Below are positions 43,488-51,380 of a DNA stretch of 64,000 nucleotides, in pieces. Location of the stretch: assembly GCA_017962745.1 (NCBI GenBank), contig JAGCUR010000005.1, positions 7,193 to 71,192 on the forward strand. The letters run 5' to 3'. The position numbers were made by a program, and so were the translations under genes. How positions within the stretch are numbered: the first letter of the stretch is position 1; each line of letters begins with the position of its first letter. The stretch is from Bacilli bacterium. Its GTDB lineage: Bacteria; Bacillota_I; Bacilli_A; ML615J-28; CAG-698. Below the pieces are notes generated by a model. The model was not told where the DNA came from, did no database searches, and saw nothing but the letters and a program-made list of their open reading frames with translations.

Positions 43488-46029
43488 CCTTAGTATTAAG
43501 GAGTGGCACTACTTCATCTACGCTCTTTCTTATTATATTAAATAGATCTGGCCTCTTTTCTAAAAACGGAATAATGACATTATCGATACAGTTAAATACT
43601 GATTCATAAGTTTTTCCTTCCATTACTTCAAATGTATCATATACATTTTCATCGTTAGAGAATGGATAACTATAAACAAATGAATCGACTACGATTACAT
43701 CATAATCAAGATTAAACATCTTATCTTGATATAAGCTAATCGCATAAGGATAAAGGATATGTTGAATATAAGGATTATTAGCTTTATCTTTATATTTACC
43801 ACTCTTGTAATCCACAAATCTTAAATGTAAAATTCTATTTTCTAAATAACCATCAAGTCGATCAATAAATCCACTAAATACTAATTTATTATTTTTAGGA
43901 TAAATAGCTTTATATTTATCACTTAAATTAAATTCAGTAGCAAGCACACGATATTTTTTATTCTTAAAATCTTTCTCAATCATTTTAATAATATAATCAT
44001 GAGCTGTATCTTTGATTTCTTTAATCTCTTTGTATTTAATGTATTCGTTTCTTTCAGCGTTTCTCTCTTCAGCCTCTTTTTTCGCAATTCTAAATGCTTC
44101 ACTAAAGATTGCCTCATCAATAGAAGGTTTATAGTTTTCAAGCTTTAAAGACATGTTAGCATATTCTTCTAATATCTTATGGAAGAATGTACCTTTTTCA
44201 TTAGCTTCTAACCAGTTATAAACTTCTAGTTGTTGATAACTAACATCACTAAGCCTTGCCATATACTGGTAATAATATTGTAATGGACAATTCATTAAAT
44301 TAGTTAGTGCACTAGGTGATAGTTTAAACACATCTTCTTTTTCTTTTATAGTTTGTTTCTCTACAATAACTTCTTCATCTAAGTGTTCTTCATCACTTAC
44401 AATACTACCATTATCAAGCGCTCTACTAACTTTCTCTACTGCTACAATTTCTTTATGGGGCATGCAGATATTAGTATCTTCAATATCATATAAATTCTTA
44501 TGAATTGATTCAATTCCTTTAGTTAAGTTAATCAAATAAATTGATTTAGCTGAATCACGCATATCTATCTTATTAAATGAAGAATAAGATAAATAAATAT
44601 TAGAATTACTATAATCTAAATAATAATCTAACGCATCAGTTACTTTTCTCTTTAAGCATTCTAAAGTATGAATGCTAGTACCCTTGCTAAACGCATTCTT
44701 ATATTCATCTATATTAACAATAAATGGATTTTCTGAATCATAACTATTTAGATAAGTTTGACTAAGTCCTAAAATAAATAAGTTTTGGCGAAGTGAAAAA
44801 GACTTATTTATGCTAGATACAAGTAATGCTTCGCCACTATCTGCTTCACTATAACGAAGCGATCCTAATTCTTCTTCTAACACTTTAATCTTATCGTTAG
44901 TATAAGCTAGTATATATTTTAAGTTATCAATCTTATCAATTAAAACTAACTTTTCATTAGTAGCCTTACAATACTTTTTGATAAAGGTAATAAACTTATC
45001 AAAATCAATTGTATCTTTACTAGGAAATGCTTCAATTAGTTCATTTAAGAATTCATAAATGTTAGTTTTAGAATTACTATATTTAATATCATCTAATAAT
45101 AAATTAGTTCTCTCTTTTCCAAACCCCACGATTACTTTTGGAAATGCTAAAGTTTTATAAAACTCTTCTAAATATACTTCATCTAATGCTTCATTCTTTA
45201 AAGCTTTTTCTAATAATTCATATTTAAAATCAGCTTTTACATATTCTAGTATATCTAAAATAAATGATACAAGATTTGTAGATTTGGCATGAACATTAGT
45301 CAATCTATATTTGATTCCTAATGAATCAAATAAACCTCTTGCTAAGTTTTCATAAATATCATTAGTATAAATAACTTCGCAATCACTTAAAGCTAACTTA
45401 TTCTTATTAATAATATCTACTACATTTAATAATTCATTATAAACTCCATATGTATCATACACTGCTACGATGTTTTTATCTCCAAGTGTAGGACTAACAT
45501 TAATTACTTCTTTGAAGTAATTATTAATAGCTTTCCTTTCTAATCCTGATAATTCTAAATCATTTAATAAATAAGCACTAATTTCAACTTTTTCATTAAA
45601 TACTTTAGTTAGAGCATATGGATAATCAACTAAATCTAGTTCATCTAGTTTTAAGTTGTAGTCTTTAAGTAACTTAGCATAGTCAGCTTTATACATGCCT
45701 TTAAATGAATTCGCTTCATTTAGCCTACAATCATTTATTAAATCAAGTAATTTCATGATTGAATCAGGGCTTAAATTTAAATCTTTTAAGCCATAATCAT
45801 TTTTAGAAATTAGACCAAATATAATAAATGCAGCTTCTTTTGTGCTAATTAGTCTCAATCCTTTATTATTTATTAAGTTGTATTTTTCAATTAGTTTTTG
45901 TGCTAATAGTCTTGGCGTTAATATTTCATAATTAACAATTGCTCGATGATTTAAATTAAGGTTAGCAACATATCGTCTAACGACATTTAAATCACTACCA
46001 ATTAACACTTTCTTTTCAAGTAATTTCAT
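43411..46029 (-). CDS. addB: ATP-dependent helicase/nuclease subunit B (AddB/RexB-type; inactive helicase scaffold plus C-terminal Fe-S nuclease)
   Basis: 872 aa; no N-terminal Walker A (RexB-like); C-terminal nuclease motif (GFIDRLDGY..VDYKSGK) and Cys cluster (CKFCSYKGVC); upstream of and overlapping addA. Confidence 0.7.
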   Translation of the reverse strand: MKLLEKKVLIGSDLNVVRRYVANLNLNHRAIVNYEILTPRLLAQKLIEKYNLINNKGLRLISTKEAAFIIFGLISKNDYGLKDLNLSPDSIMKLLDLINDCRLNEANSFKGMYKADYAKLLKDYNLKLDELDLVDYPYALTKVFNEKVEISAYLLNDLELSGLERKAINNYFKEVINVSPTLGDKNIVAVYDTYGVYNELLNVVDIINKNKLALSDCEVIYTNDIYENLARGLFDSLGIKYRLTNVHAKSTNLVSFILDILEYVKADFKYELLEKALKNEALDEVYLEEFYKTLAFPKVIVGFGKERTNLLLDDIKYSNSKTNIYEFLNELIEAFPSKDTIDFDKFITFIKKYCKATNEKLVLIDKIDNLKYILAYTNDKIKVLEEELGSLRYSEADSGEALLVSSINKSFSLRQNLFILGLSQTYLNSYDSENPFIVNIDEYKNAFSKGTSIHTLECLKRKVTDALDYYLDYSNSNIYLSYSSFNKIDMRDSAKSIYLINLTKGIESIHKNLYDIEDTNICMPHKEIVAVEKVSRALDNGSIVSDEEHLDEEVIVEKQTIKEKEDVFKLSPSALTNLMNCPLQYYYQYMARLSDVSYQQLEVYNWLEANEKGTFFHKILEEYANMSLKLENYKPSIDEAIFSEAFRIAKKEAEERNAERNEYIKYKEIKEIKDTAHDYIIKMIEKDFKNKKYRVLATEFNLSDKYKAIYPKNNKLVFSGFIDRLDGYLENRILHLRFVDYKSGKYKDKANNPYIQHILYPYAISLYQDKMFNLDYDVIVVDSFVYSYPFSNDENVYDTFEVMEGKTYESVFNCIDNVIIPFLEKRPDLFNIIRKSVDEVVPLLNTKDGKDHCKFCSYKGVCVKRVKDGYLD

Positions 46030-46131
46030 AATACATTCCTCTTCATAAATAATTATAGCATTAACTATAACCTTATAACATATGAAAATTATTTCATTTT
46101 CGTTAACAAAAGAGGAGATTTATCTCCTCTT

Positions 46132-47424
46132 TTATTCTTCAGTATAAGTTATCTCTTCTGCTTTTTTATAATCTAGTTCGGTAACGTCTTTTAACTTCTT
46201 TTGAATTTGACGCGTTCTAGTACCTACTAGGTTTTCAATTTCATTATCAGCTTGTTTAATCTTATCTTGTGCTTTCTTTAAAACTTCCGCAAATGTATTA
46301 AATTCCGTTTTAACTGCACTTAATAAGTTCCATACTTCACTAGATCTCTTTTGAATAGCTAGAGTTCTAAATCCGACTTGTAAACTATTGAGTAATGCTG
46401 CCATTGTAGTAGGGCCGGCAATAATGATACGATAAGTGTTTTGTAATTCATCGATTAAGCCGCTTTTTGCAACTTCAGCGTACAGCCCCTCAACTGGTAA
46501 AAACATAATACCAAAATCAGTTGTGAATGGTGGCTCAATGTATTTATCTCTAATGTCTTTCGCAAACTTTTTAATGCTAGCCTTTAGGCTTGTTTGCGCT
46601 TTTTCAATTTGATCTTTATCTAAGCTGTCATAAGCATCTAGTAAGTTAGAATAGCCATCAAGTGGGAACTTAGAATCAACTGGTATCCTAACAATCTCAT
46701 CATTATCACCCGGAAGTCTGATTGCAAACTCTACTGGATCTTTAGATTTAGGTCTCGTCACTACATTTTCTTCATATTGATCAGCAGTAAGAAGTTGACT
46801 TAAGATTTGTGAAAGTTGCATTTCACCCCAAATACCTCTAGTCTTAACATTAGTTAAGACTTTCTTTAGATCGCCTACACCTGTTGCTAATGTCTGCATT
46901 TCACCTAAGCCTAATTGAACTTTATCTAAGTTTTCTTGAACTAGTTTAAATGATTCTGTCAAACGCTTATTTAGTGTAGATTCTAACTTTTCATCAACAG
47001 TCTTACGCATCTCTTCTAATTTCTTAGAATTTTCTTCTTGTAATTTTTCAATTGATTTAGCCAGAGTTTCTCTAATACTATTTAAATATTCTTCTATCTT
47101 ATTAGTATTTTCTTTAACACTTGCTTCTACACCTGATACATTTTCTTTCAAAGTATTAGTTAATAGATCAAGTTTTTCATTTGTAGACTTATTAAAGTTA
47201 TCTAAATAAGAATTAAGGTCACTACTAATCGCTTTTTGAACATTACTTAACTTATTATCAATTTCTTGTTTTAATCTACTAATCTCATCTTTGATTTCTT
47301 TTTCTAGTTTAGTTGTGTCTAGTTCTTTTTGTCCATCGTTTTTCTTTTTGAAGATTAAGAATAAAAATACTAAACAGGCAAGTACCAAAACAATTAGTAT
47401 TATTAATAAAATAGTATCAATCAT
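46132..47424 (-). CDS. rmuC: DNA recombination protein RmuC
   Basis: 430 aa; N-terminal TM anchor, long coiled coil, C-terminal RmuC nuclease-like domain. Confidence 0.75.
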   Translation of the reverse strand: MIDTILLIILIVLVLACLVFLFLIFKKKNDGQKELDTTKLEKEIKDEISRLKQEIDNKLSNVQKAISSDLNSYLDNFNKSTNEKLDLLTNTLKENVSGVEASVKENTNKIEEYLNSIRETLAKSIEKLQEENSKKLEEMRKTVDEKLESTLNKRLTESFKLVQENLDKVQLGLGEMQTLATGVGDLKKVLTNVKTRGIWGEMQLSQILSQLLTADQYEENVVTRPKSKDPVEFAIRLPGDNDEIVRIPVDSKFPLDGYSNLLDAYDSLDKDQIEKAQTSLKASIKKFAKDIRDKYIEPPFTTDFGIMFLPVEGLYAEVAKSGLIDELQNTYRIIIAGPTTMAALLNSLQVGFRTLAIQKRSSEVWNLLSAVKTEFNTFAEVLKKAQDKIKQADNEIENLVGTRTRQIQKKLKDVTELDYKKAEEITYTEE

Positions 47425-47488
47425 TTTTATCTCCTTATATTTATCGTAATTAGATTATATCATTTATTACTAATAAATCTATATTTTT

Positions 47489-47944
47489 TTAAATGACATC
47501 AATGGTTTTTCCTAAAGCATTAAAAAGCTTATTAATCTTTGCTAAAGTGGGGTTACCTATCCCTTTTTCTAGTTTAGAAATGTCGCCTTGATCAATATGC
47601 GATAGCTTTGATAGTTGTACTTGTGTAATTCCTTTTTCTTCTCTAGTCTTTGCTAATAGTAGCCCTATTTTTTGATTCAAAGTAGTTGATACATAACCTA
47701 CTAGTTCACCATCTTCATAAACTGTCATTGCATCAATATCAATATCATCATTCCAAATTACGCCATAACCACCTCCATCAAGATGGCCACTTAAGAATAA
47801 ATCGCGATTAAGTTCTAATTCTTTAATCTTTGGATACTTATTCTTTAGCAAAGCCATATCATATATTATTACTTTACCATCCTGAAAAGTAAGTTCAATT
47901 TTTACACCTTCTAAAAAGCGAATGTTTATAGCAGAAACAATCAT
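47489..47944 (-). CDS. DUF2442 domain fused to C-terminal XRE-type HTH
   Basis: N-terminal 85 aa follow the DUF2442 pattern (ELTFQDGKV..DLFLSG..GYGVIWNDDIDIDAMTVY); C-terminal KGITQVQLSKLSHIDQGDISKLEKG is a Cro/C1 HTH. Confidence 0.65.
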   Translation of the reverse strand: MIVSAINIRFLEGVKIELTFQDGKVIIYDMALLKNKYPKIKELELNRDLFLSGHLDGGGYGVIWNDDIDIDAMTVYEDGELVGYVSTTLNQKIGLLLAKTREEKGITQVQLSKLSHIDQGDISKLEKGIGNPTLAKINKLFNALGKTIDVI

Positions 47945-47992
47945 AATTCACCTCTATTACTCGAGCCCTTTTTATCTTTCTATAATTACCTG

Positions 47993-48115
47993 TTACCCAC
48001 ATATCCATAAGGTCTTTTTTGTTTTTAGTAATAAACTCTTTGACCATTCTTTGTGCTCTTTATTCTTTAAATACATTCTAATAACGATTCCATAAAAAGC
48101 AATAATCGTTGGCAT
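47993..48115 (-). pseudogene. Truncated DUF4160-like ORF (40 aa remnant) with strong RBS
   Basis: Translation MPTIIAFYGIVIRMYLKNKEHKEW.. matches the DUF4160 N-terminal signature (MPtI..FyGi.IrMY..dHnPPHfH) but diverges and stops after 40 aa; AAGGAGG 7 nt upstream of the ATG. Confidence 0.5.
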
Positions 48116-48132
48116 TAACTCTATCCTCCTTA

Positions 48133-48161
48133 ATTATATGGTATTTATACCATATTGTCAA
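48133..48161 (-). promoter_or_regulatory. Consensus sigma-70-type promoter (TTGACA-17-TATAAT) with a perfect 9-bp inverted repeat (atatggtat-N2-ataccatat, 48136-48155) in the spacer; putative autoregulatory operator
   Basis: Minus-strand read: TTGACAatatggtataaataccaTATAATtaaggagg..ATG; the palindrome occupies the spacer and overlaps the -10. Confidence 0.6.
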
Positions 48162-48221
48162 ATGTATATTTTGCATTTCATACATATAATTAACATAAGA
48201 GTTAACTTTTTCTTAACAAAA

Positions 48222-48254
48222 TAAAAAAGATGCAATCGCTTCACGATTACATCT
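48222..48254 (-). terminator. Rho-independent terminator downstream of the flavoprotein gene
   Basis: Stem gatgcaatcg / cgattacatc (one mismatch) followed on the minus strand by TTTTTTATTTTG. Confidence 0.5.
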
Positions 48255-48263
48255 CTAGTTAAA

Positions 48264-48887
48264 TTATCTAATAAAATTAGTAGCAACTCTTTCTTCGTCT
48301 TCTAGCATTTCTTGATACTTTTCTTTTCCATCTTTAATCGATTTCATCAAGAAAGCCATTCTTTTAGCGACAATTCGCGCGTTACGAAGTCCTTCTAAAT
48401 CCGACTTAACTTCGCCTTTAGCGCCACCAAAAGCATTGTTCCAATAATCACCTGATGCTATAGGCATACCAGATATTGTGAAATACTTGTTGATGATATC
48501 AAAGCTAGTTTCAGTTCCGCCACGTCTAGCTATATTGAAGTTAGCACCAACTTTAAATCTAACGTCATAATTTCTACTATAGAAAAGCCTATCAAGTAAT
48601 GAAATTACTGATCCATTTGGTGAACCAAAATATACTGGGCTCACAACAATTAGTCCATCGGCTTCTTTAAACTTTTCACTTACTTCATTTACGATATCAT
48701 TAAATACGCAACCGTTTTTCGTCTTTTTACAAGTAAGGCAGGCCATGCAGCCCCTTACTTCTTTAGTGCCAATATTTTGAATAACAGTTTGTACATCATA
48801 CTTATTAAATTCGTTTTCTAATTCTTCAATTAAATTAGCACAATTACCATCAATACGCGGTGATCCATTAATAATTAGTACTTTCAT
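48264..48887 (-). CDS. Iron-sulfur flavoprotein-like NADPH-dependent FMN reductase (flavodoxin-like fold with compact Cys cluster)
   Basis: MKVLIINGSPR, SPVYFGSPNG flavodoxin-like motifs plus CX2CX2CX6C (CMACLTCKKTKNGC) as in the Isf family; 207 aa. Confidence 0.65.
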   Translation of the reverse strand: MKVLIINGSPRIDGNCANLIEELENEFNKYDVQTVIQNIGTKEVRGCMACLTCKKTKNGCVFNDIVNEVSEKFKEADGLIVVSPVYFGSPNGSVISLLDRLFYSRNYDVRFKVGANFNIARRGGTETSFDIINKYFTISGMPIASGDYWNNAFGGAKGEVKSDLEGLRNARIVAKRMAFLMKSIKDGKEKYQEMLEDEERVATNFIR

Positions 48888-48917
48888 TTTAGTCTTCTCC
48901 TTTTATAGATTTAATAA

Positions 48918-51380
48918 CTATTCTCTAGATCGCGTGTTATCTGCGATATTCCATCTCTTGATAGAAAACATTGAGAATAGATGCGTTAATATAATAATTA
49001 ACATTATAAATGCAAAAGCAATCGCTACTGCTGGAACGCTAAATACTGTTGGATAAGTTTGCGTCGGTGATGAGCAGACCTTAAATAGTAGTACCGAAAT
49101 ATAATATCCTGCCGGTATCGCAAATATTGATGCTATCAATAATTGTGCTACACTTTGCAAAGTCCAAACATCTGATACGTTTTTAAGTGTAAAGCCAATT
49201 GCTCTTAAGATTGTTAGTTGTCTCTTTTGTTCCATCAAAGCATTTTGACTCATAATAACTAGGATTATTAATCCCATACCAAATGAGAATCCAACCATTA
49301 CATAAATAAAGATATTTATGGCATCGAATATATCGTGGATGTCCTTACTTAGATTTCTTGTAAATACCGTAAGGGTTCCTGATGCTGCATCATCTAAATA
49401 TTCTAAGACAGCATCTTCATTATTAGTATTAAATAAGATAGATGAAACATATGTATCTGTAATTTGACTCAACTGATATTTTGATAAATAAGTAATCGGA
49501 TGGAAATACTGATTAGATATGTCAACTACTAATACATCAACACCATTTACTCTAATCGTATCACCTTTTCTAACTTTCAATTCTTTCGCTAACGTCTTTG
49601 GTAAAATAATACCATTTCTTGGAATGCTTAAAAACTTTCTTGCATGAGCATCTGGAATATTAACCATATTATTTTGTGATGTCTCATCGATTGCTAAACA
49701 TTCTAGGTATGTTTTCCTATTACCATTAGTTGCTTCCACATAAGTATAATAACAATTTTCACTTTTAGTAATAAAATCTTTGCTAGTTAATTCTTCTGCT
49801 TCTTCTTCAGTTATTTGACCAGCATAATAAATTTGGCCATCATATTGTGGACGAATGTCAACCGATTGATTTACCATTCTTGTCTTTGCGGCAAAGAAAG
49901 ATAATGTAATTATAATAATTACAAATGAGGCAAAGATTGAAAATGTAGATACAAAGAAACGTTTGAAGTTTTGGGCAATTGAGTTAACACCAAGTTTTGT
50001 ATTCATCGGTGCTTTATCAATAAATCTACTTAACCATTTTGGTAATGGTTTTCTCTTTGATTCGTTAGAAATCGTCGCATCCTTTGGTGTAATTCTTAAT
50101 ATTCCTCTACAAGAAATTAATGTCGTAAATTCGGAAAAGGCAATTAGTGCTACACATGCGCCGACGCAGATTCCAGCTTGCAAACCAATAGGTAATGTTG
50201 GCATTGAATATGTCTTACGCATTACTAGTATTAGCTGCGAATTAATTAGATATCCTAGTCCTACTCCTAAGATACCAGATAGTGCACTCATCAAGAATGT
50301 AAATAAGAAAAATAATGCACTAATATCGCGGAAGCCAACACCAATTGACATCATAACACCAATTTCTTTGGTCATTGCGGTAATCATTTGATTAATGAAT
50401 AGACCAATAACAATCATCGTAACAAAATAGAAAAATATTGGTAAGAAAATTGATGCTGTTCTTAATTGCTTAATGCAGTTTTCTAAATACAATATGTAAA
50501 TTAATTTATGAGCTTCACTCTTTTCTTTAACTTCAATTCCTTTGGCGTCTAAATAAGCATTTACATTTTGAACAACCTCTTCTTGGCTATATCCTTCCTT
50601 AGCTTCAATTAGTATTTGATTAGCATATTTACTAGCATAATCATTACCAATTAAATATTTATCAGCTAAATCTGGAATATCGCTACCGATTATTGCTACA
50701 GCAGTTTGATAATAAGCACTATACTCTTCGCTTGAGTTAATCTTTTCATCGATTACTGCTGCTAATCTCTCTAATGCCTTATCTAGTTCTATTTCGTTGA
50801 TATAAATATAGCCGAAGTCACTATTATCACTCCACACATAATCATTAGCACGCGCTTTAATTCCTTCAGGCGTTTCAATTATTTCATTTATATATAATGG
50901 AATGTATGTTTTAAAGTAACCTATCTTAATTTCATCACCAAGTTTAAGACCATTGTTTTCTGCGAAGTTACGAAGCACTGATACATTTACCGCGTCAACT
51001 CTTCTTTCCTTTTGTTCTACAATATATCTTTTAAATACTTGGTTATCTTCTTCACTAAATGTATAAATTCTAGAAGTAATTATACGCCCCTTCGAATTTA
51101 CCATACGAACGTCTAATGTAAGACGGTAATCAACTTGCGCAACGCCTTCAACTTGCGCAACGCCTTCTATAGTTGCTTTTTCGACTAAGCCTGTTTTAAA
51201 TATCGCATCAACGCTTTCATATTCCTTTAAATATCCTTTAAATTCTGTTTGAAGGTGGAATAATGTAGAGGCAAATGCACAAAGCATTCCAATCGAAAGC
51301 ACCGATACAAAAACCATTGATACAAAAAGGCCAGCATACCTTTTGAAGAATGGTTTAAACATTATTTTAATCATTACCAA
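48918..51380 (-). CDS. ABC transporter permease, FtsX/MacB-like (two FtsX modules with large extracytoplasmic domains)
   Basis: 820 aa; N-terminal TM, extracytoplasmic domain, 3-4 TM, second extracytoplasmic domain, 3-4 TM; overlaps the upstream ATPase gene. Confidence 0.75.
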   Translation of the reverse strand: MVMIKIMFKPFFKRYAGLFVSMVFVSVLSIGMLCAFASTLFHLQTEFKGYLKEYESVDAIFKTGLVEKATIEGVAQVEGVAQVDYRLTLDVRMVNSKGRIITSRIYTFSEEDNQVFKRYIVEQKERRVDAVNVSVLRNFAENNGLKLGDEIKIGYFKTYIPLYINEIIETPEGIKARANDYVWSDNSDFGYIYINEIELDKALERLAAVIDEKINSSEEYSAYYQTAVAIIGSDIPDLADKYLIGNDYASKYANQILIEAKEGYSQEEVVQNVNAYLDAKGIEVKEKSEAHKLIYILYLENCIKQLRTASIFLPIFFYFVTMIVIGLFINQMITAMTKEIGVMMSIGVGFRDISALFFLFTFLMSALSGILGVGLGYLINSQLILVMRKTYSMPTLPIGLQAGICVGACVALIAFSEFTTLISCRGILRITPKDATISNESKRKPLPKWLSRFIDKAPMNTKLGVNSIAQNFKRFFVSTFSIFASFVIIIITLSFFAAKTRMVNQSVDIRPQYDGQIYYAGQITEEEAEELTSKDFITKSENCYYTYVEATNGNRKTYLECLAIDETSQNNMVNIPDAHARKFLSIPRNGIILPKTLAKELKVRKGDTIRVNGVDVLVVDISNQYFHPITYLSKYQLSQITDTYVSSILFNTNNEDAVLEYLDDAASGTLTVFTRNLSKDIHDIFDAINIFIYVMVGFSFGMGLIILVIMSQNALMEQKRQLTILRAIGFTLKNVSDVWTLQSVAQLLIASIFAIPAGYYISVLLFKVCSSPTQTYPTVFSVPAVAIAFAFIMLIIILTHLFSMFSIKRWNIADNTRSRE
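51131..51166. repeat. Perfect 2 x 18-bp in-frame tandem duplication inside the permease gene (protein EGVAQV-EGVAQV)
   Basis: caacttgcgcaacgcctt repeated twice consecutively. Confidence 0.9.

Follow-up and report, generated by a model that had tools for sequence, protein, structure and literature searches.

The window analyzed here, a 64,000-nucleotide stretch of DNA, harbors what is probably a chromosomal type II toxin-antitoxin operon of the DUF4160/DUF2442 (DhiT/DhiA-like) kind, in which the antitoxin represses its own promoter and the toxin gene has recently been deleted. This reading is carried by the observed domain identities, the nature of the deletion, the reality of the deleted allele, the conservation and covariation of the operator, and an asymmetric pattern of gene loss across the family. 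In the ancestral state, one strong promoter would transcribe an 84-aa DUF4160 toxin together with a 151-aa antitoxin. The N-terminal DUF2442 domain of the antitoxin would neutralize the toxin, while its C-terminal Xre-type HTH, as a dimer, would bind an 18-20 bp palindrome that lies in the promoter spacer and touches the -10 hexamer. Bound in this position, the antitoxin would exclude RNA polymerase and turn off transcription of its own operon. In the window lineage, a 97-nt deletion between two GAGCACAA repeats removed the invariant HNPPHxH core of the toxin and shifted its frame, and a 1-nt insertion came after it further downstream. The remaining state would be an autoregulated orphan antitoxin-repressor behind a translated 40-codon relic.

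Architecture of the module

The module lies on the minus strand of the window, where a sigma-70 promoter with a palindrome in its spacer is followed in turn by a 40-codon ORF and a 151-codon ORF. The -35 hexamer TTGACA (48156..48161) and the -10 hexamer TATAAT (48133..48138), both on the minus strand and 17 nt apart, match the sigma-70 consensus at 12/12 positions and form the sole such site in a scan of 46000-49000. Related loci carry a -35-like hexamer (TTGACA, TTGAAA, or TTGATA) at the equivalent offset. The ribosome-binding site AAGGAGG (48125..48131, minus strand, read from the sequence) belongs to the former toxin gene; it stands 9 nt ahead of the ATG of the toxin relic at 48115 and is identical in loci that carry an intact allele. 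The first-pass annotation had described this promoter and AAGGAGG site as feeding a 40-aa ORF on the minus strand, and each element is found where it had been placed. A terminator-like hairpin of the upstream FMN-reductase gene (48226..48256, minus strand) marks the 5' border of the module.

An Rfam scan of 47300-48400 returned no match near any gathering score. A candidate caiA sRNA spanning the promoter and leader (48113-48190, minus strand) scored 29.7 bits (E = 0.012; gathering score 55.5) and was judged a chance match.

The antitoxin and the origin of its HTH domain

The 151-aa protein encoded at 47489..47944 (minus strand), behind the ribosome-binding site GAGGTG (47949-47954, minus strand, from the sequence), is assigned as the antitoxin and predicted autorepressor from Pfam, AlphaFold2, and Foldseek. 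Pfam places DUF2442 (PF10387) on residues 6-77 (about 47714-47929, minus strand; 41.5 bits, cut-off 23.9) and HTH_3 (PF01381) on residues 97-150 (about 47495-47656, minus strand; 44.2 bits, gathering cut-off 23), in agreement with an earlier description of this ORF as a DUF2442 domain fused to a Cro/C1 HTH. The AlphaFold2 model (pLDDT 93) has its best full-length Foldseek match in the Protein Data Bank (PDB) in entry 2AUW, with 155 aligned columns and E = 9e-5. This entry is surfaced by the fold search alone; PDB sequence searches with the antitoxin return HTH relatives only. The HTH of the model superposes by itself on ClgR, C.BclI, HipB, and HigA, and helices 89-143 fit ClgR and C.BclI at 0.6-0.8 Å rmsd. 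PDB matches of the intact toxin are de novo designed proteins that are considered spurious, and no meaningful relative was found among them.

The DUF2442-HTH_3 fusion is old, widespread, and family-wide. More than 340 homologues of the antitoxin that contain both domains were found; they are 60-74% identical and come for the most part from gut and rumen Bacilli that have not been cultured. A search with the DUF2442 part alone recovers 337 representatives of 50%-identity clusters, in which stand-alone proteins of ~80-100 aa are mixed with proteins of ~150 aa, and 8/8 tested representatives of the ~150-aa class contain both DUF2442 and HTH_3. Together with the same build in 2AUW, these counts overturn the first-pass proposal that the HTH was acquired at this locus. 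Three antitoxin builds occur beside toxins 45-60% identical to the window-family toxin, namely DUF2442 only, DUF2442 with HTH_3, and DUF2442 with HTH_59, which makes the DNA-binding module an exchangeable part of the antitoxin family and one that has been swapped. PADLOC returned generic HTH matches only and assigned no defense system.

Two further arrangements were seen among relatives. L097, L101, L105, L128, and about 40 more of the loci L094-L173 have toxins 45-55% identical to the window-family toxin; within that set, antitoxins of ~144-148 aa combine DUF2442 with HTH_59 (42 bits; weak HTH_17), and others are stand-alone DUF2442 proteins of 80-99 aa. In L008-L010, an extra 96-aa HTH_3 gene begins 3 nt past the antitoxin stop (e.g. 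3471-3761 in L008), giving a three-gene module.

A predicted operator in the promoter spacer

A perfect inverted repeat of 9+9 bp, ATATGGTAT-AA-ATACCATAT, fills the promoter spacer at 48136..48155 (minus strand), its final three bases doubling as the start of the -10 hexamer. The first-pass annotation had noted a perfect 9-bp repeat within the spacer and -10, and it is indeed present at 48155-48136. Within it, the conserved core TATGG-N8-CCATA occupies 48137-48154. The palindrome is unique in the 64 kb even when up to three mismatches are allowed (0.17 expected), and a search for a second operator in the window found none, restricting the palindrome to the module's own promoter.

Comparison of the window with 44 related loci, three of them from metagenomes and 41 from GTDB species representatives, reveals an 18-bp palindrome at the matching promoter position in 44/45, beginning 1-2 nt past the -35-like hexamer and running into the -10. 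Across these loci the spacer palindrome is more conserved than the hexamers that flank it. In the Bacilli clade the core TATGG-N8-CCATA is exact in nearly all loci, and the central eight bases are variable. In a Lachnospiraceae clade whose antitoxins are 35-40% identical, the operator reads TATAGGATATATCCTATA, with half-sites TATAGG..CCTATA, both changed in mirror image. The recognition helix QGDISKIE is almost invariant. Immediately ahead of QGDISK, loci with TATGG/CCATA operators encode D, and those with TATAGG/CCTATA operators encode Y, H, or K. This residue of the recognition helix is likely to help determine specificity.

A spacer that is better conserved than its hexamers, the symmetric covariation of the half-sites, and the correlated change in the helix lead us to read the palindrome as the site of a dimeric repressor. 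It is highly likely to serve as the HTH protein's operator, as the first-pass annotation had anticipated, given its position in 44/45 loci and the covariation of its half-sites; physical binding of the HTH to the palindrome is inferred from the same patterns. Position, half-site covariation, and correlated helix change are strong comparative support for the predicted negative autoregulation.

Seven loci (L011, L012, L013, L017, L027, L028, and L031) carry an extra operator copy ~32 bp, or three helical turns, upstream, beyond the -35 and ~80 nt upstream of the toxin start. The window has no such copy. The two-operator arrangement suggests cooperative or two-state control in these seven loci, as in C-protein systems.

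At 48148 (minus-strand operator position 8), the toxin-deleted allele of the window has T, completing a 9/9 palindrome, and the intact alleles L001-L004 have G, leaving 8/9. The difference is a single substitution, and T is the family consensus. The idea that the perfect palindrome compensates for a lost co-repressor was rejected on this ground and because symmetry is independent of toxin status across loci.

A toxin gene inactivated by deletion

The closest homologue of the 151-aa protein, P0001 (97% identical), is encoded on four metagenome contigs, L001-L004, in the same neighborhood as in the window: ABC-type permease, FMN reductase, the module, RmuC, and AddB. The flanking genes are 96-99.5% identical to those of the window at the nucleotide level, which identifies L001-L004 as conspecific strains or as members of a very close species. 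In these strains an intact 84-aa DUF4160 gene precedes the antitoxin, with an intergenic gap of 12 nt in L001, and the L001 toxin matches PF13711 at 76.5 bits (cut-off 23) over profile positions 1-64 of 65.

Relative to L001-L004, the window toxin bears two lesions, a 1-nt insertion and a 97-nt deletion with 8-bp direct repeats at its ends. At the deletion junction (48051..48058, minus strand) a single GAGCACAA remains, where alignment places two copies 97 nt apart in the intact allele; a direct repeat at the ends of a deletion is the signature of slippage or microhomology deletion. The deletion takes out codons 22 to about 53. It thereby removes five of the 15 residues that are invariant across 21 intact toxins (N22, P23, H25, H27, and G47), and the HNPPHxH core lies among the residues lost. 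The frame shift that the deletion causes produces the 40-codon ORF (47993..48115, minus strand), of which residues 1-21 are toxin and the next 19 are frameshifted nonsense. The last third of the toxin, codons 52-84 with the old stop, is still present out of frame at 47957..48059 (minus strand), as located by tblastn and alignment, a remnant that the first-pass annotation overlooked. Codons 52-81 survive at 48059-47970 in another frame, 97% identical to the intact allele by tblastn. The insertion lies in this remnant, where alignment reveals an A5 run (47969..47973, minus strand) with one A more than the A4 of the intact allele.

A Pfam search with the 40-aa ORF alone gave no match, so the relic owes its DUF4160 identity only to comparison with intact relatives: over residues 1-21 it shares 90% identity with the N-terminus of the full 84-aa protein. 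The DUF4160-like character proposed earlier for its first 16 residues is therefore well founded. Of the two profiles suggested in the same annotation, PF10387 matches the 151-aa ORF, and PF13711 matches the intact toxin of the relatives but not the 40-aa ORF by itself. The view of a decayed DUF4160 partner that diverges holds in part, in that a dead DUF4160 gene is present, broken by a deletion and an insertion and not eroded by divergence. The window copy of the toxin is non-functional. Its inactivation in the window lineage is recent.

Asymmetric loss across the family

Loss of the toxin recurs throughout the family. An antitoxin-anchored census of 46 loci, by construction blind to loci that have lost the antitoxin, contains 25 loci with both genes intact, 16 with a dead or absent toxin and a full-length antitoxin, five with both genes damaged (L015, L026, L034, L037, and L043), and none with an intact toxin and a broken antitoxin. 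The toxin is thus lost in 21/46 loci, and 16 of these 21 keep a full-length antitoxin with promoter and operator. The lesions are diverse. Besides the 97-nt deletion of the window, they comprise two in-frame TAA codons (L029, L030), a frameshift (L041), stubs 8-26 codons long (L036, L043, L047), C-terminal stubs (L014, L015, L037, L049-L051), and clean excision after which promoter and operator stand 34-53 nt before the antitoxin start (L018-L020, L022, L025, L032). Deletion, nonsense mutation, and frameshift account for about 16 separate events of toxin loss among the 46 loci. Distances from operator to antitoxin start form a series of ~300, 211 (the window), 158, 138, 117, 100, 73, 49, and 34 nt, in which the toxin is whittled away and both flanks are retained.

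A toxin-anchored census of 80 metagenome loci, which only partly compensates for the blind spot of the first, points the same way. Here 73/80 toxins are intact, and for 64 of these the contig extends far enough downstream to look for a partner; a complete DUF2442 ORF follows the intact toxin in 64/64. An intact toxin without an antitoxin is accordingly absent from both sets (0/64 toxin-anchored and 0/25 antitoxin-anchored loci). This asymmetry is what a toxin-antitoxin relationship predicts, and it is the best in silico support obtained here for a DUF4160 protein that would be harmful without its partner in this subfamily.

Nonsense codons interrupt the toxin in the other 7/80 toxin-anchored loci (L096, L114, L148, L150, L152, L158, and L170), and five of the seven keep the antitoxin. 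Each of these toxins has one in-frame nonsense codon and is otherwise well conserved; in L170, TGG has become TGA at the invariant W72. Null toxin alleles seem to be common in natural populations. An alternative genetic code was rejected as the source of the in-frame stops, which include TAA, TAG, and TGA and are followed by antitoxins that read normally.

Some orphan loci retain traces of how the toxin was lost. In the Lachnospiraceae orphans L049, L050, and L051, the toxin stubs lie 100-160 nt upstream of the antitoxin and start at or near M-W codons (ATGTGG), which are conserved in the C-terminal part of the toxin. The paired locus L048 is closer to the orphan L051 than L049 is, suggesting independent deletions with similar end points. 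In L014, an 85-aa AbrB/SpoVT-like ORF (MSTKGQIVLPSEMREAL..., 2214-2500) ends beside a seven-codon toxin stub, MKLKGLE*, followed by an intact antitoxin; no operator was found at this locus, and a different small gene seems to have replaced promoter and toxin.

Fate of the orphan antitoxin

It is possible, if not the favored view, that the orphan DUF2442-HTH protein is no dying relic and is retained by selection, either as an anti-addiction or immunity factor against incoming DUF4160 toxins or as a domesticated repressor. In its favor, L018, L019, and L020, from three different species-level genomes, have exactly the same toxin-deletion junction when compared with the paired locus L023, which indicates that the loss predates their split. 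Since then their antitoxins have reached dS 0.16-0.50 at a dN/dS of 0.04-0.05, within the paired range of 0.03-0.12, an indication that selection still acts on at least some orphans. The retention of full-length antitoxin, promoter, and operator in 16/21 toxin-less loci fits such selection, and DUF4160 domains serve as effectors in other systems, e.g. Menshen NsnC (PMC12065111). Against it, retention is not universal, since the antitoxin is damaged in five toxin-less loci, where decay also happens, and a second DUF4160 toxin may be present elsewhere in the orphan genomes. The window itself has neither a second DUF4160 gene nor a second operator; a search of the 64 kb for other DUF4160 or DUF2442 genes found none. 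The dN/dS of the window antitoxin, 0.27, is calculated from eight changes relative to the intact allele (4 synonymous, 4 non-synonymous), too few to inform.

Only tentatively, then, might it be generalized that HTH-fused DUF2442 antitoxins regularly survive the loss of the toxin and thereafter evolve under purifying selection as strong as in pairs. If so, the antitoxin would have a selectable function of its own, possibly a chromosomally encoded immunity to DUF4160 toxins brought by mobile elements or by defense and competition systems, or regulation of the host. The window would then capture the first step in the transition from paired to stand-alone antitoxin, still polymorphic within one species.

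An unlikely alternative makes the HTH protein a local transcription regulator and not a toxin-antitoxin remnant; protein and strong autoregulated promoter would now act mainly on the DNA-repair genes downstream, rmuC and addB, by read-through. No terminator-like site was found on the minus strand at 47425-47488, between the antitoxin stop (47489) and rmuC (47424), and in a 74%-identical relative (L005-L007) the module also lies directly upstream of addB. Other family members, however, occupy unrelated neighborhoods, e.g. beside PAP2 and lyxose-isomerase genes in L008. In addition, rmuC has its own TG-extended -10, TGATATAAT (47454-47462, minus strand), and the operator occurs solely at the module's own promoter. 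Some read-through from the toxin-antitoxin promoter into rmuC and addB is possible.

Least credible, and very improbable, is an assembly or sequencing artifact in an organism that truly carries the intact operon: the extra A does sit in a homopolymer run, a classic error site, but three independent assemblies (L091, L092, and L093; Logan SRR12529100, ENA ERZ28653882, and ENA ERZ28018842) match the window base for base through promoter, junction, and A5 run, an exact-protein look-up finds the window antitoxin on seven contigs, and an 8-bp direct repeat bounds the deletion as expected of slippage or microhomology deletion. The deleted-toxin allele is real. An exact search of the JGI metagenome collection did not find the deletion junction. 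Intact and deleted alleles come from one study series, and the species thus appears polymorphic for presence of the toxin.

Significance

As a toxin-antitoxin operon that has lost its toxin, the window module is ordinary biology and a very clean example of it. It belongs to a known kind of module and brings nothing conceptually new to toxin-antitoxin biology; the operator code, the asymmetry of loss, and the constrained orphans are the modest added value of the comparison. For an uncultured lineage of gut or rumen Bacilli, two DUF labels nonetheless become a specific, testable DhiTA-type module. The gains are a predicted spacer operator, TATGG-N8-CCATA, a likely specificity residue, and a natural pair of intact and deleted toxin alleles in the same cohort. 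Recurrent toxin loss with retention of the antitoxin-repressor and its promoter offers a clean system in which to ask why orphan antitoxins persist.

Comparison with known systems

The first-pass annotation treated DUF4160/DUF2442 pairs as modules of unknown function, a description overtaken by work on DhiT/DhiA (PMC8198452) and on Thermus plasmids (PMC12724237) and by the existence of an NCBIfam DhiT model. In Dickeya dadantii 3937, the first gene, a DUF4160 protein, inhibits growth, and the second, a DUF2442 protein, relieves the inhibition; the two genes are co-transcribed with the toxin gene first, and their promoter is repressed ~50% by the antitoxin and more strongly by the toxin-antitoxin complex (PMC8198452). 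DUF4160 also figures in a comparative study as one of the toxin and effector domains, with DUF2442 noted as a neighbor (PMC12065111).

The window module shares with DhiT/DhiA both Pfam families, the toxin-first order, abutting genes, and a single upstream promoter. Repression of that promoter by the antitoxin is established in Dickeya and predicted in the window. Unlike its Dickeya counterpart, the window antitoxin has an extra C-terminal Xre-type HTH of ~60 aa, its toxin is deleted, and its host belongs to an uncultured low-GC Bacilli lineage. The NCBIfam model toxin_DhiT (NF048015) scores the intact relative of the window toxin at 80.2 bits (E = 1e-22), below the equivalog cut-off of 100, and an NCBIfam search with the window antitoxin matched no DhiA model. 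These scores place the module in the same superfamily as DhiT/DhiA and not as its orthologue, so that toxicity of this subfamily's DUF4160 protein and neutralization via the DUF2442 domain would be extrapolations across a Pfam-level relationship, by analogy with the Dickeya pair.

On Thermus plasmids, a DUF4160/DUF2442 pair enhances plasmid persistence, and a plasmid without the second ORF of the pair cannot be established (PMC12724237). This "persistence-enhancing module" of Thermus thermophilus (DUF4160, 87 aa; DUF2442, 92 aa) has the same domain pair and order as the window, and it cannot do without its second gene once the first is there (PMC12724237). The Thermus module is plasmid-borne and its antitoxin has no HTH, whereas the window family is chromosomal and its antitoxin is HTH-fused. 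Searches of PLSDB and INPHARED found no full-length homologue of the window antitoxin, leaving a plasmid or phage origin of the module unsupported.

The nearest structural counterpart of the antitoxin is 2AUW (NE0471 of Nitrosomonas europaea), released in 2005 by structural genomics as a "putative DNA binding protein." Both proteins join an N-terminal beta-rich domain, which in 2AUW we take to be DUF2442, to a C-terminal lambda-repressor-like HTH; identity is 12% and the TM-score 0.44, reflecting a different orientation of the domains. By sequence, the closest solved HTH domains are those of HigA, HipB, C.BclI, and C.Esp1396I (E = 1e-4 to 1e-6). The antitoxins HigA and HipB and the controller proteins (C-proteins) of restriction-modification systems, C.BclI and C.Esp1396I, are dimeric repressors of their own operons that act at palindromic operators overlapping the promoter, but their toxin-binding or partner parts are unrelated to DUF2442. 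The window locus would accordingly represent a subfamily of DhiTA-type modules in which an Xre HTH equips the antitoxin for predicted self-repression via a spacer palindrome.
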